Position numbers and translations under genes: made by a program. A DNA stretch of 64,000 nucleotides from a virus. This document shows, piece by piece, positions 16,128 through 58,500 of this stretch (its first letter is position 1; every line of letters starts with the position of its first letter). The stretch spans positions 1 to 64,000 of IMG/VR virus record IMGVR_UViG_3300017925_000001; one strand, written 5' to 3'. Below the pieces are notes generated by a model. That model was not told where the DNA came from. It worked only from the letters and a program-made list of their open reading frames with translations, and searched no databases.

Positions 16128-17792
16128 ATGCCAAGAATAAAACGAACTGAAGTAAAAGAACGACCAGCGTATCTTAGTCCTGACGGCACTATTGACCTTA
16201 GAAAGATATTTCAACTCCAGCCAAAACAGACGGAACTCTTGCAGATGCGTACGAGAGACGGAGTTCCTTATATCATGACGGTTGCTCCTCAATGTCTGAG
16301 TGTTGGAGGTTTCCGATCAGGTAAAACTGTAGGGTGGTTGATGTACTTCATCGAAAACTATTCTTTGGCGTATGAAAATTGTGACATACTTGTTCTTCGT
16401 AGAACATTTAAGGAATTAGAGGCAGGCTGTATAAAGGACTTCCTTACGTTTGTCCCAGCAGAGTTGTTTACTTATGATCAAACTAAGCACACTGCTACAA
16501 TGATAAATGGTTCACGCGTTGTGTTTGGTCATTGCAATAATAATAAAATGCGAGACATTGACCAATATCTGGGCACAAGCTATAGCGCGATCCTTGTTGA
16601 CGAGTGCGGTCAATTTTCTCCAGATGCTTGGGGCATGCTTTACTCAAGAAACATTGTAAGTGGTGCTTGTATACCTAATAAACACGGTCATCTTCCTATC
16701 CCAGTGATAGTTGGAGCAACCAACCCTCTTGGTCCTTATTACGAATATTATCGTACGGTGTTTGTGCAGAAGGAACCTTGGGAACGTCCTGAGGGCGCTA
16801 AGCGCGATGCTAATGGTGCATGGTGGGTGGAGTCTAATGGAGAGTTGCTGAACGTATACGACCCACGTTTGTATGCCTATCAGCGCTCAACCGCGATGGA
16901 TAACCCAGAATTCCTTAAGAGGGACCCGGGATTCCTAGCGCGTATGAACAGTTTGCCCAAGGCACAGCGTGACAAAAAACTGTTGGGCCTTGATGGAGCA
17001 GTCGAGGGGCAGTACTTCACCAACTTTGATCCTTATGAACATGTGATAGACCTTCGTGAAGATCCCGATGCTATCATTTTTGAACCGTGGCAGAAAGTGT
17101 GGGCGGGAAGTGACTGGGGGATTGGTCACGCTTGCGCTGCACACATGTTTACTAAGGCTTTGGTAAAAACTTCTAGCGGGGATTATCGACAAAAAGTAGT
17201 GTGCTTCAAAGAGCAAGTAACCACAGGGGGAAAAACACACAAAGAATGGGCGTTGTTGTTTAGTAAGATGTGTAAACTTCCAAACGGTGTAGAAGTTAAA
17301 CCTTCTTCTATTTTCTTTAGTCATGAGAAGTTTTCTAGACAAGTTAGCGCGCATACACCTGCAGACGAGTATTCAAAAGAACTTAAGACATATGGATTAC
17401 CCGCTGTAACTCGTGCTACGCAGGATCGCATAGGATCTGCGTCATTGATGTACAACATGTTATCTAATGGGGAATTGGTGATACTTGACACATGCAAGGA
17501 TATTATCAATGCGATTCCTTCGTTAATGCGTGATCCTGATAATATTGATGATGTACTTAAAGTAGATACACGCGGAGATGATGTTTACGATTCGTTTAGG
17601 TATGGACTGTTTGGACAGCTTGGCACAAGAAAAAGACCTGCAGAAATAGCTATTCAAGAACATGCAAAGGAGCTTGATCCCTTGGCGCGACATTTTTATT
17701 TGATGAAAATGGCTCACGACAAATCAAATTCTAACGAACCTTTTGTTCAGAAGAGTGTGCCTATTTGGCAAGGTAAATGTGGTTTAGCATAA
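16128..17792 (+). CDS. terL: Terminase large subunit
   Basis: Walker A GGFRSGKT, Walker B ILVDE, ATNP motif, nuclease DWG...DDVYDSFRY. Confidence 0.95.
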   Translation: MPRIKRTEVKERPAYLSPDGTIDLRKIFQLQPKQTELLQMRTRDGVPYIMTVAPQCLSVGGFRSGKTVGWLMYFIENYSLAYENCDILVLRRTFKELEAGCIKDFLTFVPAELFTYDQTKHTATMINGSRVVFGHCNNNKMRDIDQYLGTSYSAILVDECGQFSPDAWGMLYSRNIVSGACIPNKHGHLPIPVIVGATNPLGPYYEYYRTVFVQKEPWERPEGAKRDANGAWWVESNGELLNVYDPRLYAYQRSTAMDNPEFLKRDPGFLARMNSLPKAQRDKKLLGLDGAVEGQYFTNFDPYEHVIDLREDPDAIIFEPWQKVWAGSDWGIGHACAAHMFTKALVKTSSGDYRQKVVCFKEQVTTGGKTHKEWALLFSKMCKLPNGVEVKPSSIFFSHEKFSRQVSAHTPADEYSKELKTYGLPAVTRATQDRIGSASLMYNMLSNGELVILDTCKDIINAIPSLMRDPDNIDDVLKVDTRGDDVYDSFRYGLFGQLGTRKRPAEIAIQEHAKELDPLARHFYLMKMAHDKSNSNEPFVQKSVPIWQGKCGLA

Positions 17793-17873: not shown

Positions 17874-18575
17874 ATGTTTTATACATATCTGTGGTTACGA
17901 GAAGATGGTACCCCGTATTACGTTGGAAAAGGTTCTGGGCGTAGAGCATTTATAAACCATAGAAAACGTCGGGTGAGGATGCCCCTCGATAAAGAACGTA
18001 TTATCATTCAATATTTTGAGAATGAAACTGATGCCTTTGAAGCTGAGAAATTTCTTATATCATTTTTTGGAAGAGAAGATTTAGGTTTAGGATGTCTTCT
18101 TAATATGACAGACGGAGGAGATGGCCAATCTGGGTTGGTTCATAAAGAATCTTCCAAAGAAAAGATCAGACAGGCCCAAAAAGGTCAAAAGAGATCTGTA
18201 GAAAGAGTTAAAAAGACAGCAGACGCCTTGCGAGGAAGAAAAGGCAGGATGCTTTCCGAAGAAGAAAAGCAATACCTGTCTGATCTTTTTAAGGGTAAGC
18301 CTTGGTCTGAATCTAGAAGAAAAACTCAAGAAGAAAAACCTATCCGTATGGCTACTTGTCACCCCGATAGGAAGCACGCAGCTAACGGCCTGTGCAAAGA
18401 ATGCAACTACAGGGAATGGTCAATAAGAGTAGGCAGAAGACCTGGAACGGGAAAACTTAAAGGCTTTATTCCAACGTGTCACCCGGATAGGAAAGGACAT
18501 GCTAAAGGTTTATGCAAAGCCTGCTATGAAAGGGAAAGATTAGAAAAGAAAAGGAGAGCTCAGGATGCCCTATGA
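17874..18575 (+). CDS. Free-standing GIY-YIG homing endonuclease
   Basis: FYTYLWLREDGTPYYVGKG...R...E...LN.TDGG; NUMOD3-like repeat and two CHPDRK..GLC motifs. Confidence 0.9.
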   Translation: MFYTYLWLREDGTPYYVGKGSGRRAFINHRKRRVRMPLDKERIIIQYFENETDAFEAEKFLISFFGREDLGLGCLLNMTDGGDGQSGLVHKESSKEKIRQAQKGQKRSVERVKKTADALRGRKGRMLSEEEKQYLSDLFKGKPWSESRRKTQEEKPIRMATCHPDRKHAANGLCKECNYREWSIRVGRRPGTGKLKGFIPTCHPDRKGHAKGLCKACYERERLEKKRRAQDAL

Positions 18576-23287: not shown

Positions 23288-23365
23288 ATCTCAGGACTTA
23301 TAAACCTGAGCTAGAGTAGGGAGGTGCGCGAACATCTCCCTTCTCGCCTTTTCGCGGAGGAATCA
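23288..23365 (+). promoter_or_regulatory. SD-sequestering pseudoknot leader, copy C
   Basis: Hairpin 1 CTCAGG/CCTGAG; stem GGGAGGTG/CATCTCCC; loop CGCGAA pairs with TTCGCG. Confidence 0.9.
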
Positions 23366-23974
23366 ATGATTGTTTATTTGATAACAAACGAAGTGAATGG
23401 AAAACAGTATATAGGTCAGACCGTTCGCAGTTTGCAAGTACGTTGGAAAAAGCACTTGTCTGCTGTGGTTTTGGGCAGTGAGTATTATTTTCACAAAGCC
23501 ATAAGAAAATATGGTGAAGAAAACTTTTCTTTGTTAGTACTCCACATTTGTGAAACCAAAGAAGAGATGGACTTTACCGAAGTGTTCTACATTTCTTTGT
23601 TGGGCACAAAAGCTCCTAAAGGATACAACTCTACCGAGGGTGGAGAAGGAACTGTAGGGCATAAACATACTGAAGAGTCCATTCAGAAAATGAGAAGTTC
23701 TCATAGTGGTCATAGAACCACTGAAGAACACAAAGAAAAGTTACGAAAAGCTTCCGAAGGAGTTCCGAAGTCAAAGGAGCATTGTCGCAGCATTTCTGAA
23801 GGAAGAAAAGGTATAAAATTTTCTTCTGAGCACCGAAAGAATATAAGTTTAGGACACATCAGAAATATTTGCCATCGTGGTCACAGTAGGATTCCTGCTA
23901 ATCTCAACAGAGATGGATCATGTAAACAATGCAAAAGGATTACAGAGCTTAAGAGATTGGGGAGGAGCCTTTGA
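23366..23974 (+). CDS. Free-standing GIY-YIG homing endonuclease (Seg/I-TevI-like, NUMOD3)
   Basis: IVYLITNEVNGKQYIGQT...R...GYNSTEGG; HTEE repeats; start set to the ATG after GGAGG. Confidence 0.92.
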   Translation: MIVYLITNEVNGKQYIGQTVRSLQVRWKKHLSAVVLGSEYYFHKAIRKYGEENFSLLVLHICETKEEMDFTEVFYISLLGTKAPKGYNSTEGGEGTVGHKHTEESIQKMRSSHSGHRTTEEHKEKLRKASEGVPKSKEHCRSISEGRKGIKFSSEHRKNISLGHIRNICHRGHSRIPANLNRDGSCKQCKRITELKRLGRSL

Positions 23975-26852: not shown

Positions 26853-29260
26853 ATGCCTCTTTTAGAAGCCGCTGTTGAAGCGGTTGAGTTAGACGCCTTC
26901 GCTAAGGAAATACCCGATCTTGTCTTTCATGGCACGACCGCGTATAGCCTTTTTAAGGCTGAAGCTACCTCTATTCCCGTTAGCAATCAGTCGAATGCTG
27001 GCGGAACGGTTCGTGCATCCTTTAGGGTGCCTTTCCGAGTGCAGTCTGGTGCGGCAATTTCACAGGGAACTGGTAACGCGGATAGTATGGGTCGCGGAAC
27101 TGGATCTCAGTGGGCTTCGTTCGCTCTAGCTCCTGTGTATTTGTTTAACGTTTGCGAAATCTCGTGGTTAGCTCAGGCTTCCACGGACAGCAAACAGAAG
27201 GGTCTTTTTGCCGTAGAGTCAACGCTTTAGCGGCTGCTTTAGACTTTAAAGAAAACAACACTTGACTATATCGGTGGAACCCTGCTATCCTGAAAATAGG
27301 AGGCAGACAATACCGAGGGAAGATAGGAATGACAAAACAGTCGAAGTTTTCGTATTTAGCAGGTTTCATGGATGGTGAGGGCAGCTTCTCCATCGTCAAA
27401 ACCTTCTCTGTTCAAAGAAAACGGGACGGAAGTAAGCAGAAATACGTAACCTACAAATGTATGGTTTCCGTAACCAACACCAACAAAGAGGTGATGGATT
27501 GGATAGCCAAAACTTTTGGTGGTAAGGTTCTCACAGGCAGCAACGAGAATCGGAACCCAAAGTACAAAACTAGGTATTCATGGTTCAGGACGAGCCATGA
27601 GGACATTGAAAAGTTCACGTTAGGAATTCTGCCTTACCTCATTGTGAAAAGGAAACAGGCTTTGGTTGCTTTAGAGTTTTGTAAGACATACTTTACAGGG
27701 CGAATTGGTAGCCAAGAACTGAGTTCCGAAGTGACTGCAAAGAGAGATGAACTGAGACGCGAGATGATGCGCCTCAATGGCATCTTTTTACCAGACGCTT
27801 TACCTAAACCCGTAGAGACTACACGTCAGGCACCTCAAAGTTTAGATATAGACCATTGCCCCAAATGCAAGGAATTTTTGCACGATGAAATGGGTCATAT
27901 GTGTCCCTAAATATAAGGTGATGATATAGTCCGACCTTCTACAGAGATGTAGAGAGGGTGGCAGAAATGTCCATCCCTGAACGTCATCACTTGCAATTAA
28001 GTAATGACGTTTTGTAACAATAAGTAAAGCCCAGGAAATGAAGAATTCTCTGGATGCCGCAATGCAAGGTATTGAGGGCTTGATCAACTCTGACGGTTCT
28101 GGCATGATCGACCAGATCCCGGTGGGAGCCAACGTCTCCAGCGGTTCAGGAGTCGGTGCGCAGACCTCTTTCATCACCCCGATGAACGTGGCTGTCGCGT
28201 TCTCCGACCAACAGGTTGTTCAGTTCTACACCACAGCCGGTGTCAACCGTGGTGGAACCGCAACGATTTCCTATGTTGACGGCCCCACGAACACCCTGTG
28301 GTTCAGCACCGCTCTGCCCGCTGGTGTCGCAGCCACGGACTACGTTGTGGTCGCTGGTGCAACATACGGTACGGGCGCATCCATCCTGGGTATCAAAGCT
28401 TGGGATGTGAACTCAAACAGCGGAACCATCGCTGGTTTGAACCGCGCATCGTATCCGGGTCGCTTGTCCACTCCGACCATCAACTTGGCCGGTGCGGCAA
28501 TCACCCCTGGCATCGCGCAGCGCGCTGAAGTCCTCTTGGGACGTGCGCTCGGCCCTGATGCGGATTCCATCAAAAGTGGAATCTGGTACGGTCCCCCTGA
28601 GCAGGCTTTCGCTCAGTCGAACCTGATGTACAACGTTCAGATTGCGAACGCGCAAGAAATCCACGGGGACAAGACCCTGGATATGGCGAAGAAATCCTTC
28701 GCTGACACGTTTGGTGGACGCAAGTACCACAAATCGTGGACCGCAATCAACAACCGCATGGACCTGTTGGTTCTTGACAACTGGTACATCGGGGAGCTGT
28801 CTCCGCTGGAGCTGTACGACTTCGGTGGTGGCAACGTTGTGGCACCTGTGCCCGACATCAGCTCTACGAACGGGACCGCGAGTTACCTTACCTCGCACAT
28901 GTTCGCTTACAATACGTGCTTCAATTTGGCGAATGCTGCACCGCGTGCAGGATTGTACATCCAGAACGCCGCTGTTAGCTCTATCTAGTTGATTCTAAAG
29001 CAATTAACTGATAGAAAAGCAGCTTTGCTCAGCAATGAGCATTGAGAATCTAGAGAATTCAGGGAAACACTCATAAGAGTCAATCCTGAGCCGAGCCCCG
29101 CAAGGGGAAGGTGCAACGACTATCCCGCAAGGGAGTAGGGCGCAAGTGCGCTCGAAGCACTAGACACCCGTCAGGGTGATGATATAGTCTGAGCTTGCAG
29201 GCGACTGCAAGAGACCAAACGGAAACGGTTTGATCGCAACATAACTGACCGCAAGTGTAA
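26853..29260 (+). CDS. Major capsid protein, spliced: join(26853..27214,28025..28975,29248..29260), 441 aa
   Basis: Intron removal restores the frame (KGLFAV-KAQEMKNS; NAAV-PQV*); position after scaffold; strong codon bias. Confidence 0.85.
27215..28024 (+). mobile_element. Group I intron 1 (capsid) with LAGLIDADG ORF
   Basis: P1 GCCGT/GCGGC with U.G; P10 GCTTTA/TAAAGC; P7 GACTA...GATATAGTC; terminal G. Confidence 0.93.
27329..27910 (+). CDS. Intron-encoded single-motif LAGLIDADG homing endonuclease
   Basis: YLAGFMDGEGSF; ILPYLIVKRKQA. Confidence 0.93.
   Translation: MTKQSKFSYLAGFMDGEGSFSIVKTFSVQRKRDGSKQKYVTYKCMVSVTNTNKEVMDWIAKTFGGKVLTGSNENRNPKYKTRYSWFRTSHEDIEKFTLGILPYLIVKRKQALVALEFCKTYFTGRIGSQELSSEVTAKRDELRREMMRLNGIFLPDALPKPVETTRQAPQSLDIDHCPKCKEFLHDEMGHMCP
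28976..29247 (+). mobile_element. Group I intron 2 (ORF-less) at the capsid 3' end
   Basis: P1 GCTGT/GCAGC; P2 GCAA loop; core GAATTCAGGGAAAC, AATCCTGAGCC, GACTAT, GATATAGTC; ends AACATAACTG. Confidence 0.88.
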
Positions 29261-29335
29261 TAAATTTAGGGCTTTCTGCAGGAAGTCCTTGGGTTGGAGT
29301 CCTGCTGCAGCGGGATTCCTTCTCAGAATTAGTTT

Positions 29336-29411: not shown

Positions 29412-30068
29412 ATGACAGAAAAGATTTGCACTAGATGTTGTGTTTCAAAACTTTTGAATGAAGAGAACTTCAAGAAGAGAAAAGGTTATGCTGACGGCTT
29501 CCACACATGGTGTACCGAGTGTTTGAAGACTTACAATGCATGGTGGGAAAAGAAGAATAGAGATGCAGACCCAGAGTACTACCGTGCTCGGGAATTTGCA
29601 CGAGAGATGAAGAAATACGGAACTACTGTGGAGTGGTACCGAGACCGGCTCATAGAACAGCTTGGTTTATGCGCAATCTGCGGACATCTTAGTCATCATC
29701 ATGGCACGATTCAGAGACTTCAGGTCGATCATGCTCATTCTTGTTGTGATTTGCACACCAAAAGCTGTGGCAAGTGCCTTCGCGGTCTACTTTGTGCCGA
29801 TTGTAACATTAGGCTAGCTCCGCTTGAGCTTCTGTTGACCGAGTTCCCTTCCGAAAGAGTTGATCAAGCCGAGGTTTTCCTTCGCAATTCCGTTGTAAAA
29901 GACTCATGGACCTATCGAGCGTTGAAATATCTCAAGAGGTACGTGCAAGATCATAATAAACCTTGGAACCTGACGCAGGATGCCTTAGCAACTCTAGAAT
30001 TAGCAAAAATTAAACCAAGAGAAGGCGTGATAATCACAGGCGTGACTCAGGAGACTCAGAATGTATGA
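29412..30068 (+). CDS. Endonuclease VII-type homing endonuclease
   Basis: KYG...QLGLCAICG...LQVDHAH...RGLLCADCN; N-terminal Zn finger. Confidence 0.9.
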   Translation: MTEKICTRCCVSKLLNEENFKKRKGYADGFHTWCTECLKTYNAWWEKKNRDADPEYYRAREFAREMKKYGTTVEWYRDRLIEQLGLCAICGHLSHHHGTIQRLQVDHAHSCCDLHTKSCGKCLRGLLCADCNIRLAPLELLLTEFPSERVDQAEVFLRNSVVKDSWTYRALKYLKRYVQDHNKPWNLTQDALATLELAKIKPREGVIITGVTQETQNV

Positions 30069-54909: not shown

Positions 54910-55443
54910 ATGAAGAACGTATTGAAAGCGGTTTTATTCGCTGCTATGTCTATCTCTTTATTTGGGACATGCCTTGCACAAGAAGGCAGATTGCAAGTAA
55001 AGACTCAGACGCACACTTTAGCACTAAAAGAAAAAATCAAGGTTGATCCACCTACCAAGTATGTTTTGTCTGGCACCTATTTGGTATCCGGCAACGGCAA
55101 TGTAACGTACATAGAACCTTTGTCTGTTACGTATCTTGACGACCCCTTAACAGTAACGTGCGCGAGCACATGTTCAATCCTAGGCAGCTTAACAGTGCAG
55201 ACCAGTGGAAGTATTTCCAGTAATAACCTGGCTGTATGTATGCTTGTGGATGGAGAACCTGTTCCAAACGGTTGTCAATGGTCTACTGATACTCCAGGTG
55301 ATGGTACTTTTGTTGAAAGTTCTGTTTCTTCTTGGGTAGTAGATTTGCCTGCTGGGGAACACACAGTACAGACGGCCATAGCTTCTGAGTATGGCTGTGA
55401 TTATGAATACTGGGGCTTTCAATATTCTGTGTACAAGCCGTAG
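54910..55443 (+). CDS. Secreted hypothetical protein
   Basis: Sec signal MKNVLKAVLFAAMSISLFGTCLA. Confidence 0.75.
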   Translation: MKNVLKAVLFAAMSISLFGTCLAQEGRLQVKTQTHTLALKEKIKVDPPTKYVLSGTYLVSGNGNVTYIEPLSVTYLDDPLTVTCASTCSILGSLTVQTSGSISSNNLAVCMLVDGEPVPNGCQWSTDTPGDGTFVESSVSSWVVDLPAGEHTVQTAIASEYGCDYEYWGFQYSVYKP

Positions 55444-55561: not shown

Positions 55562-58500
55562 ATCGGACATAACCTTAAACAACTGGGTAAGTAAGTTGCC
55601 CCCTCAGTCAGTAATGATTGAGCGCAGAACCAAGAGAATTCGGTGAAACGCCCTCTGGGCCAATACCGAGCCGAGCCGCTAATGCGGAAGGTGTAACGAC
55701 TATCCCGCAAGGGAGTAGGGAACAGTGTTCCCGAAGTACTTGGGGTCCTGAAAAGGATCATGATATAGTCTGGTCTTACTGGCAACAGTAAGAGTTCGAA
55801 TGGAAACGATTCGAGCGTAACATATAAACGACAGCTTCTTTGGATTGTTTTGGCGGTCTTATTACCATGGCTCAAGCCCGTGATTTGCCCGAAGGTGCGA
55901 GTCCGAGATGTTTCGACGTTGACTTTACAGTCGGTAGCGTAGCCACTCGTCCCGGCTTAGTATCCGTGTATACCTACGCAAATACTTGGGCCATCACCTC
56001 GTACTCCCTTGGTAGTGGTGGTCTTGCAACATTTAACTACACCGGTATCCCCGAGATCACCGAGAACGAAGGATTGATCCTCAGCGGATTCCAAGGACCT
56101 CTCAGTGTTTTGAACGGAACCACGATATATGCCGAAGCTGTAACCATGAACACTTTCATGGCACAAGTAGTTGGACCCTTGGGCACCTTTGTCAACCTAA
56201 GCGCCAGCGCAGTTTCCCTAGTGGGCTCCTTTGTAGGGCCTAACCAAGGGGTTGCCTCTAGCACTTCTTGGAGTAGTCCGCAGAACGTGTTCAGTCCCAC
56301 GGGGTACGCCTCGGCAAGCGGAGGACAGACATACAGCCCTGCGATTGTCCCTGGATCAACGTCTAGCACTTCATCTACAGCTTGGACTAACCCAAGCTAT
56401 GCTTTGTCCACAAGCCCAAGTACGTACGCTACTGTGAGTTCTCTTGGTGCAGGAGTGTCCGCACCCCTCTATGCGAGTGCTTTGGGCTTGTCTGTACCTC
56501 CCAATGCAACAATCACAGGGGTGAAGGTCGCATTCTCTGCTAGAGCTACAGAGGCCAGCGGTAATCCATACGTCATTGCTCAGCTTGTGCTGGGAGGGTC
56601 GCAAAGTTACTTGGGAAGCGCAGTAAATATTCCTATCGCAGCGAATGGCGCGAGTTTGGCTCCATACAATTATGGTTCCTCAACGTTTCAATGGGGTACC
56701 ACTCTGACGCCCGCGATTGTCAATGATCCTACTTTCGGGTTTGACCTAAGCGCTTTCACGGGAACTCTGTCGAACAACTTTCATTATTATTTGAACAGCC
56801 TCGTGGTCGCGGTTTACTACACCACATCGGCTACAACAGAGATTCTGACGGCCAACAGTTTCGGATTCTCGATCTCGTTGTCTTCTGGAGTCTCAGGGTT
56901 CAACACCACTTTCAAAGCGTATTCCAGCGCATCTACTTCGGCAGTGTTTCAACTACTTGAGAACGGAGTTCCTCAGGGCACTCCTAAGACTCTTCCTCTC
57001 ACCACTACGCCCACGGTGTATAATCTGGGCGGGCCTGAGGACCCTTGGGGCTATGTCTGGTCAGCAGCCAACGTCAACTCTCCGCAGTTTGGAATTCAGA
57101 TCACAGCCGAAGGAGTCGGCACTACGTACGTAGGGGACTTGGATGTCACCACATTTGTCACCCCGGCGCTATCGAATTTCAACTGGATTGGGAGCTATGA
57201 GCAGACGAATGCTGCGCTTACCACTCTGGCTCTTGATGCTGATGGCAACATGTGGGCTGAGAACGTTCTCAATAACCCTGGGGTACTATCGCTCTCATTG
57301 AGCGGTTTGCTTCCAGATTCGTACGCGGTTGGAGCTACGATGAATGATTCCGAGTTCATCATGTTCTCGGATCTGAATATCGGCACCGACCGTCCTCGTC
57401 AGCTCTACAACGATGGAAACTGGTATCCGGTGACCCAAGTGGGCCCTGGTAGTGCTCCGACATTCTTGGCTTCCACAGGTGGGATTACTAATACCCTGCA
57501 CATCAGCGCTTACACAGCAGTCGCAGGCACACCCACTATTCCGTCATCAACGACCTTCACAATATCACCTGTGGCAGCTGTAGCTCCGGTTGTTGGATCA
57601 CTTTATGTACTGAGCGGATTCACTGGGCCGGACGCAGTATTGAATGGTCAGGTGGTCACGGTTTTGACAGGTGCAACCACTGCTAGCTTTTCAGCAGATG
57701 TATCGGTTACTGCTCCAGGCAACACCGCTGTCGTAGCTCTTGCTACGCTCACCTTCGCATATCCCATAGAGAGCATCAAACAATTGGGGTACATTACGAG
57801 CGGTCTGAGCGGTGGGGTGCTTTGGTTCCTTCTGAGTACAGGACCTAACCAGTCTGCTCAGGGCAGTGTAGTGACAGTGTACTACGCATATGCATCGCCT
57901 TCACTAGCGCCAAATTTGAACCTTCAGAATGCTTGGAATGCGTCTGTGGCTGGAACTGGTCCTCCAGTTTACGTGCAGATCAATAATGCAGCCAATGTCA
58001 ATGGTTACAATTTTGATGGGATCTGGCAAGTCACAGGCATAGGGTACAACCATTTCTTGGGGTATACCTCACAGGGGTATTACTTCACTTTCCAGTACAC
58101 TGAGTCTGGTTTTGCCAACGGCACCAACAATGCCACGGCTTATCTGACACAAGCCACGTTGACCTTAGCTTCCCCTGGTGTCGTTGGGATCACGAATAAT
58201 ACACCCATCACTATTACAGGGGTCACAGGAAGTTCTCCAGATCAGGTAGGGTACAACAATACGTGGGTTATCACCAACGCTGTCAATACAGGTCAGTATA
58301 ACATCACTGAATCCCAGTATAATGGCGCTGGGGTTGCGACCTTCACATACAACTTCGCCTCTTTAACTAATAGTCAAGTTCCTGTTGTAGGTAATACCAT
58401 TCAGATCATAGGCGTCACCAACAATGCCGCCATGAACGGTATCTTTGCAATTTCGGCTGTGAATGCTGGCGCTTCTACATTCAGCGTGCTAGTGACTATC

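Follow-up and report, generated by a model that had tools for sequence, protein, structure and literature searches.

The group I introns of the phages T4 (td, nrdB and nrdD/sunY), Twort and SPO1 provide the nearest architectural comparison for the element treated here, a group I intron at the very end of the major capsid gene of an uncultured peat phage. The DNA under study, referred to below as the window, comprises positions 1 to 64,000 (the initial 64 kb) of the IMG/VR record IMGVR_UViG_3300017925_000001, a 109.7-kb phage contig bearing terminal repeats, and the public runs that contain near-identical copies of it are peat metagenomes. The introns of T4, Twort and SPO1 share with the capsid-end intron a U.G pair in helix P1, the helices P3-P9, the additional helices P7.1/P7.2 and a terminal guanosine (omega-G), and, as in other protein-gene introns of phages, an in-frame stop codon lies just inside the intron and the interruption falls in a highly conserved stretch of an essential gene. 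Unlike them, the capsid-end intron is located 10 nucleotides (nt) before the capsid stop codon and not in a gene of DNA metabolism, and its P1 holds a 43-nt insertion that appears to derive from the end of the host gene itself.

Introns of group I are likewise described from the major capsid genes of crAss-like phages belonging to the Delta and Zeta groups (PMC7886860). As in the peat phage, these introns are of the self-splicing kind, several of them are found per genome and the phages are uncultured, whereas the peat phage, with about 110 kb, represents another lineage. In the part of that account on which we draw, the introns were found by way of endonuclease domains, and neither a position at a gene end nor a duplicated ending is mentioned. 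In cyanophage S-PM2, a psbA intron devoid of an open reading frame (ORF) lies beside F-CphI, a free-standing nuclease with the Endonuclease VII (Endo VII) motif, an arrangement for which the term 'collaborative homing' has been used (PMC6083498). The ORF-less intron of the peat phage likewise adjoins a free-standing Endo VII-motif nuclease, but in this case the nuclease gene is also found beside intron-less alleles.

A duplicated gene end is known from fungal mitochondria, where mobile endonuclease ORFs (mORFs) occur together with a duplicated C-terminus of the gene, as in atp6 of Allomyces and in atp6, atp9, cox2 and nad3 of Glomus (PMC3630166). The capsid-end element would resemble the mORFs in bringing its own copy of the gene end, so that the end is present twice and one of the copies decays. 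Here three codons and a stop stand on either side of the ribozyme, and the upstream copy extends into the hairpin of the native untranslated region (UTR). In the fungal cases the gene continues in phase into the imported end, and the native end, displaced downstream, is no longer translated, whereas in the capsid gene it is the native end that is in phase, and the imported end would be reached only by RNA splicing; the capsid-end element, in addition, has no ORF, and its duplication consists of three codons and a hairpin. What sets this element apart from known group I introns is an insertion in P1, at a gene end, that probably stems from the host gene. From the comparison of sequences we consider it probable that the intron carries, enclosed in P1, a relic of the resident gene end, and that splicing restores the C-terminus V-P-Q-V.

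The intron in the last codons of the capsid gene

The features on which the description relies are as follows.

26853-27214, plus strand: exon 1 of the major capsid gene, assigned by translation; its junction KGLFAV/KAQE is the same in uninterrupted homologues
28025-28975, plus strand: exon 2 of the major capsid gene, ending ...AAC GCC GCU GU
28976-29247, plus strand: capsid-end intron, 272 nt, an ORF-less, IA-like group I intron with P7.1/P7.2
28976-28988, plus strand: read-through tail, U AGC UCU AUC UAG, reading (V)SSI-stop
28971-29023, plus strand: P1, in which GCUGU and U28976 pair with A29018 and the guide GCAGC (29019-29023); loop of 43 nt
29025-29235, plus strand: ribozyme core, P2 through P9.1
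29025-31/29036-41, plus strand: P2
29049-53/29160-64, plus strand: P3
29059-64/29084-89, plus strand: P4
29069-72/29077-80, plus strand: P5
29090-92/29110-12 and 29096-99/29104-07, plus strand: P6
29118-22/29185-89, plus strand: P7
29123-26/29131-34, plus strand: P7.1
29138-43/29148-53, plus strand: P7.2, with three compensatory pairs
29165-69/29174-78, plus strand: P8
29194-200/29205-11, plus strand: P9
29213-22/29226-35, plus strand: P9.1
29247, plus strand: omega-G, the last intron base, an invariant G before ACC in 11/11 alleles
29248-29263, plus strand: 3' exon, A CCG CAA GUG UAA UAA, reading (V)PQV-stop-stop

The Rfam model RF00028 matches positions 28995-29211 with 74.4 bits, well above its gathering score of 50 (E 5e-17), and zero ORFs are contained in 28976-29247. 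The intron is inserted inside the fourth-last codon of the capsid gene (GU/A), 10 nt before the stop, and it can be called IA-like because P7.1 and P7.2 are present. The wobble pair at the splice site is U28975.G29019, and the 3' end of the intron reads ...AACAUAACUG, with G29247 as its last base.

Introns at the same site were gathered from one IMG/VR contig (L034) and from ten metagenome contigs found by a pattern scan. Ten of them are complete and, with that of the window, form the set of 11 complete alleles (241-273 nt) used throughout; a scan of IMG/VR for the pattern of the 3' junction yielded, apart from three unrelated matches, the L034 contig alone. On the alignment of the 11 alleles RNAalifold recovered a textbook core and the P1 helix, and P7 was added by hand before the pairs were counted. 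Over 71 pairs, 99.2% of the 779 cells are paired, as opposed to 30-44% when the partners are slid by 1-3 columns; a compensatory change is seen in 31 of the 71 pairs, and none of 500 shuffles attained the observed values of pairing and compensation. All five P7 pairs are invariant among the alleles. The U.G pair at the splice site is present in every allele, and a P1 pair at alignment columns 9/57, for which six alleles have C-G and five have U-A, tracks the synonymous third base of the Ala codon in the exon. After the G that ends the intron, 11 of 11 alleles continue in frame with A CCN ACN/CAA GUN/AUC and a stop, that is, with P-[T/Q]-[V/I]-stop.

These comparisons confirm, as far as sequence can, that 28976-29247 is a genuine group I intron of the self-splicing type with the predicted splice sites. 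The original prediction had placed such an intron in the end of the capsid gene, with P1 formed by GCTGT/GCAGC and the 5' splice site after 28975, and it holds in each of these respects, the Rfam score and the covariation of the core speaking for the intron, the constant wobble and its covarying neighbour for the 5' site, and the invariant omega-G with the restored reading frame for the 3' site; neither a junction downstream of the UAG nor the use of another 3' G was found. The further claim that the intron end mirrors those of the other two introns in the window is true only as a loose likeness, as intron 1 ends in AACAAUAAG at 28024 and intron 3 carries AACAUAUAAACG near 55819-55830, its putative end. 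An alternative P1, UAAAGC/GCUUUG, which would put the splice site behind the stop, was rejected; it lacks any pairing with the exon, takes up part of the guide sequence and disagrees with the covariation.

When the exons 26853-27214, 28025-28975 and 29248-29257 are joined, they give 1323 nt or 441 codons ending in NAAVPQV, followed by UAA up to 29260 and by a second UAA at 29261-63; the predicted ligated sequence is …GCUGU/ACCGCAAGUG. The spliced product of 441 amino acids (aa) is collinear over its full length with uninterrupted homologues, which have 441-445 aa, and is 90% identical to one of them (P0003). Unspliced RNA would be read as NAAVSSI up to the UAG at 28986-88, which likewise yields 441 aa, and translation thus bears out the two equally long products, …AAVPQV and …AAVSSI, that had been foreseen. 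The proposed comparison with C-termini of intron-less homologues favours the spliced form: the C-terminus is reached by 57 close homologues, of which 51 have P-[TQS]-[VI] behind NAAV, and in 50 this is the very end of the protein (40 PTV, 7 PTI, 2 PQV and 1 PSV; one PTV has a run-on). The two that end in PQV, P0045 and P0051, are uninterrupted. The remaining six carry GSI, GNI, GNF or VSI and are gene calls that have run into introns at the same site. The expectation that standard annotation would be misled was also correct, gene callers stopping at the stop codon of the intron, as in P0006, P0015 and P0046.

Evidence at the RNA level comes from assembled contigs aligned to the window, and stretches lacking RNA cover carry no weight. 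Over 28775-28975, contig 5 of the metatranscriptome run X18, 219 nt in length, agrees with the window at all positions but one, and its last 18 letters differ from the intron; DNA contigs from peat runs, by contrast, continue through 28975 without mismatch. In the bin 29238-29331, X18 has a mean depth of 0.65; this is the value of 3.38 x 18/94 and hence the depth expected if the 18 letters lie on 29248-29265. Contig 5 is probably a spliced contig, the 18 letters being placed by this depth arithmetic only, and the end of its match at 28975 is a hint of splicing.

The identity of the interrupted gene could not be read from sequence searches, as Pfam, PHROGs and PDB returned zero matches for the protein. 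An AlphaFold model was built on the homologue P0051, which is 83% identical to the spliced protein of the window, from an alignment of 64 sequences, and it reached a predicted local distance difference test score (pLDDT) of 86.5. All but one of the Foldseek matches listed for this model are HK97-fold capsid proteins of phages, gene transfer agents or phage-inducible chromosomal islands, among them SU10, A-1(L), Mic1, T5 and HK97; the single exception, a mycobacterial encapsulin, also has the HK97 fold, and the probability is 1.00 for all listed matches. Judged by this modelled structure, therefore, the gene is a major capsid gene of the HK97 fold, and the label 'capsid', which had no support from sequence searches, is borne out. 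The large subunit of the terminase is encoded upstream of it, at 16128.

Two observations concern the distribution of the intron. In two peat DNA runs the core at 29050-29143 reaches depths of 220-635 compared with 9-15 for its flanks; therefore the intron family is present there in many copies or in many genomes. A megablast search against the phage collection found no close phage record and only matches of 50-110 nt to the intron core, for example in Pseudomonas KIL phages.

The P1 loop and the resident gene end

The loop of P1 contains a predicted hairpin of its own.

28980-29015, plus strand: inner hairpin of the P1 loop, in which 28980-28994 pairs with 29002-29015 (RNAfold); its loop motif is GAUUCUAAAGC

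Intron-less relatives of the capsid gene end in …GUU CCU ACU AUC UAA/UGA UUGAUUCUAAAGCACUUAGAUGG…, and the intron of the window starts with U AGC UCU AUC UAG UUGAUUCUAAAGCAAUUAACUGAUAG…. When the gene end and 3' UTR of three such relatives (L010, L039 and L024) are compared with the 5' end of the intron, approximately 40 intron bases align without internal gaps, including a core in which 21 of 22 bases are identical, and the read-through tail U AGC UCU AUC UAG falls on U CCU ACU AUC UAA/UGA. When 0.5 Mb of related loci were searched by blastn-short with the P1 loop of 43 nt, plus-strand matches were obtained solely immediately after the capsid stop, at nine loci; the best of them extends over 22 nt at 95% (E 2e-4). 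The sequence ATTCTAAAG was also considered as a promoter or leader repeat; this was discarded, since it has 19 one-mismatch matches in the genome where 17 are expected.

The inner hairpin is homologous to a hairpin at the gene end and 3' UTR of the intron-less relatives. In nearly all of these the last 2-3 codons and the stop lie within the hairpin, whose 3' strand follows shortly downstream, and the sequence of the stems varies together with the choice of synonymous codons. Because a run of U often follows, this hairpin is probably an intrinsic terminator that overlaps the stop codon. Examples of such gene-end hairpins are found at L010:1185-1236, L020:4944-4995 and L017:4938-4989 and in L009, L013, L036 and L059; two types of loop can be distinguished among them, one of which bears the conserved motif AUUCUAAAGSAC. 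In the window the hairpin is intact as an extension of P1, and AAAA stands in place of the U-run. It is missing downstream of the 3' exon, which joins directly to sequence corresponding to that beyond the hairpin in L024 and L005; the other same-site alleles likewise have no hairpin motif behind the 3' exon. The length of the P1 loop differs between alleles: it is 43 nt in the window and in L086, 31 nt with the start UCUAUCUAGUUGAUUCUAG in L087 and L093, and 12 nt in L034, L089 and L092, where P1 forms an almost perfect hairpin and one and the same G belongs to the stop codon and to the guide sequence.

Taken together, the SSI tail looks like a decayed copy, a paralogue, of the resident gene end that is held in the loop of P1. 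The equal length of the two tails would then follow from their common descent, and selection is not needed to account for it. In the proposed course of events, recombination would have brought in the ribozyme, starting at the guide sequence, and along with it a new mini 3' exon supplied by a donor allele; both would have landed behind the resident gene end, whereupon P1 would have enclosed and looped out the old end; the loops of 31 and 12 nt would be later deletions. In the present RNA, the guide GCAGC (29019-23) would pair with the exon end GCUGU (28971-75) and present U28975.G29019, and guanosine-initiated splicing, ending at G29247, would join GU to A CCG CAA GUG UAA and so restore the C-terminus V-P-Q-V that is found throughout the family. 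RNA that escapes splicing would be read as V-S-S-I-stop, and the early stop would keep ribosomes out of the ribozyme core. A more tentative extension, which we hold to be possible but doubtful, is that the mobile unit consists of the ribozyme together with its own mini 3' exon and is able to land behind a resident stop and terminator hairpin.

Several points speak against the origin proposed here. The similarity that supports a relic spans only about 40 nt, and the relic is clear only in alleles with a long or medium P1 (the window, L086, L087 and L093); alleles with a short P1 match the gene end at 9 of 13 positions only, and in the SN lineage nothing of the gene end is recognisable. As a single event, an illegitimate recombination cannot be retraced, and the order of events, in which the long loop would be ancestral and the short loops derived, is tentative. 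Inspection by eye revealed no P10 pairing with the 3' exon. As regards splicing, a near-identical relative without the intron could yield the same X18 contig, and no joint across 28975/29248 appears among those listed for the contigs aligned to the window.

Is the second ending used?

It has previously been described that group I introns of bacteria and phages usually have an in-frame stop immediately behind the 5' junction, which keeps ribosomes out of the ribozyme (PMC3073962). The tails read through from the same-site introns are SSI, GSI, GNI, GNL, SNL, SN, GNF and VSI. Their second position is polar (S/N) and their third I/L/F (aliphatic), to be compared with T/Q/S and V/I in the authentic tail, and the first tail codon, where it specifies Gly, is seen as GGA, GGC, GGG and GGT. 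This pattern, together with the equal length of both products and the consideration that failed splicing may cost little when three residues differ, could be taken to mean that the first 13 bases of the intron are selected so that unspliced mRNA gives an assembly-competent 441-aa protein ending in …AAVSSI, or that virions contain a mixture of both tails. We regard such selection as unlikely, and as less likely than the relic. The Pro that begins the authentic tail in 51 of 51 close homologues, and that 56 of 75 distant relatives, down to approximately 22% identity, have close to their C-terminus, occurs in none of the read-through tails, and four alleles stop after the two-residue tail SN. The conserved tail bases (UCUAUCUAG) sit in RNA stems, and the varying third base of the first codon is at a position that is unpaired in the long forms; constraints on the RNA, which retain the stem bases and allow the unpaired base to vary, are therefore sufficient together with neutrality to produce the pattern. 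Moreover, a non-coding UTR hairpin was copied along with the codons, which selection at the protein level cannot explain, and introns at other sites of the relatives' capsid genes give tails of 2-10 residues that mimic nothing. The suggestion of the original prediction that the intron is 'self-neutralising' or designed for two isoforms is consequently not supported, in view of the loss of Pro from every tail, the two-residue tails and the likely relic origin; an unspliced product may nonetheless be tolerated or useful.

Two further readings were weighed. The intron could be an ordinary one in which the usual early stop happens to fall three codons in, with neither a relic nor selection on the tail; this would agree with the rule on early stops cited above (PMC3073962), with the 2-10-residue tails at the other sites and with the short-P1 alleles, which build their stop from the P1 stem and the G of the guide sequence. 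The gap-free alignment to gene end and UTR with its 21-of-22 core, and the fact that the database matches fall solely behind the capsid stop, make plain coincidence very improbable. That the capsid natively ends in SSI, with the ribozyme situated in the 3' UTR or no longer splicing, is hardly credible, although the unspliced ORF does close at 28988 and gene callers stop at that point in P0006, P0015 and P0046. Under that reading P1 would not be expected to covary with the coding exon or the U.G pair to be invariant, nor would P-[T/Q]-[V/I]-stop follow omega-G in frame in 11/11 alleles; the core, furthermore, has been kept through 31 compensatory pairs, and the match of the RNA contig ends at 28975. 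The relic of the resident gene end, enclosed in P1, is thus the reading that we retain.

Neighbouring elements and implications

The gene behind the capsid gene and the other introns of the window are listed below.

29412-30068, plus strand: free-standing Endonuclease VII-type nuclease gene (PF02945 1.1e-10; PHROG 1035, 2633)
27215-28024, plus strand: intron 1 of the capsid gene, with a LAGLIDADG ORF at 27329-27910; RF00028 34.7 bits, below threshold
55579-55830: further group I intron; Rfam match at 55579-55792, 54.2 bits

The product of 29412-30068 matches the PHROG endonuclease VII at 6.5e-19. This type of gene is almost universal behind the capsid gene, being found in the window and in 49 related loci with 31-66% identity between loci, and copies are also located inside capsid introns of L050, L052, L059 and L088. 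Since the capsid-end intron lacks an ORF and is followed by the gene of an Endo VII-motif nuclease, which shares its catalytic family with F-CphI (PMC6083498), the account given above could be supplemented by collaborative homing, in which the 29412-30068 nuclease would cleave capsid gene ends that lack the intron, and the intron would shield the genome that bears it. We regard this as unlikely, as the presence of the nuclease does not track that of the intron: homologues are located behind the capsid gene at 41 loci that lack the capsid-end intron and at eight other loci where it is present. An association of the F-CphI type is not found here, because the nuclease homologues occur beside intron-less alleles too. 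Further free-standing genes of the homing-nuclease type lie among the structural genes, namely a GIY-YIG gene at 23324-23974 and, at 17874-18575, an ORF whose match to NUMOD3 is weak and below threshold.

The LAGLIDADG ORF of intron 1 matches PF00961 at 2.8e-7. The joint 27214 to 28025 is present in contigs of two RNA runs and in neither of two DNA runs; the contigs with this joint are 90-95% alike and may stem from intron-less relatives. The intron at 55579-55830, whose core is close to that of the capsid-end intron, is located between the ORF 54910-55443 and an ORF of 1672 aa that starts near 55840. When an uninterrupted homologue was compared with the related loci by tblastn, insertions of 180-980 bp were found in the capsid gene at approximately 16 sites, after residues ~21, 34, 38, 100, 122, 126, 147, 326, 348, 373, 380, 389, 412, 415, 420 and 438. 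Six or seven insertions occur in L094 and four in several other genes, and L094:2931-6340, L024:1481-5059 and L065:3170-5436 can serve as examples of intron-rich loci among L004-L094. The capsid gene of this family of peat phages is an intron hot spot.

Gene callers assign a wrong C-terminus to the product of this capsid gene, and tails of this kind are found in 6 of 57 close homologues. The P1 helix can evidently tolerate a 43-nt insertion, which appears to be made of the terminal hairpin of the host gene, and the 'duplicated ending' of an intron at a gene end would obtain a concrete origin, as a displaced resident end and not as an evolved mimic. If the more tentative extension, a mobile unit of ribozyme and mini 3' exon, is true, it would describe a route by which introns can enter gene ends without precise insertion, and the spare ending left behind would be built in and would lower the cost of failed splicing. 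If the unspliced product is also usable, the intron would be nearly cost-free, which bears on the persistence of ORF-less introns. The capsid gene family itself offers an exceptionally intron-rich model in which the gain and loss of introns can be studied.

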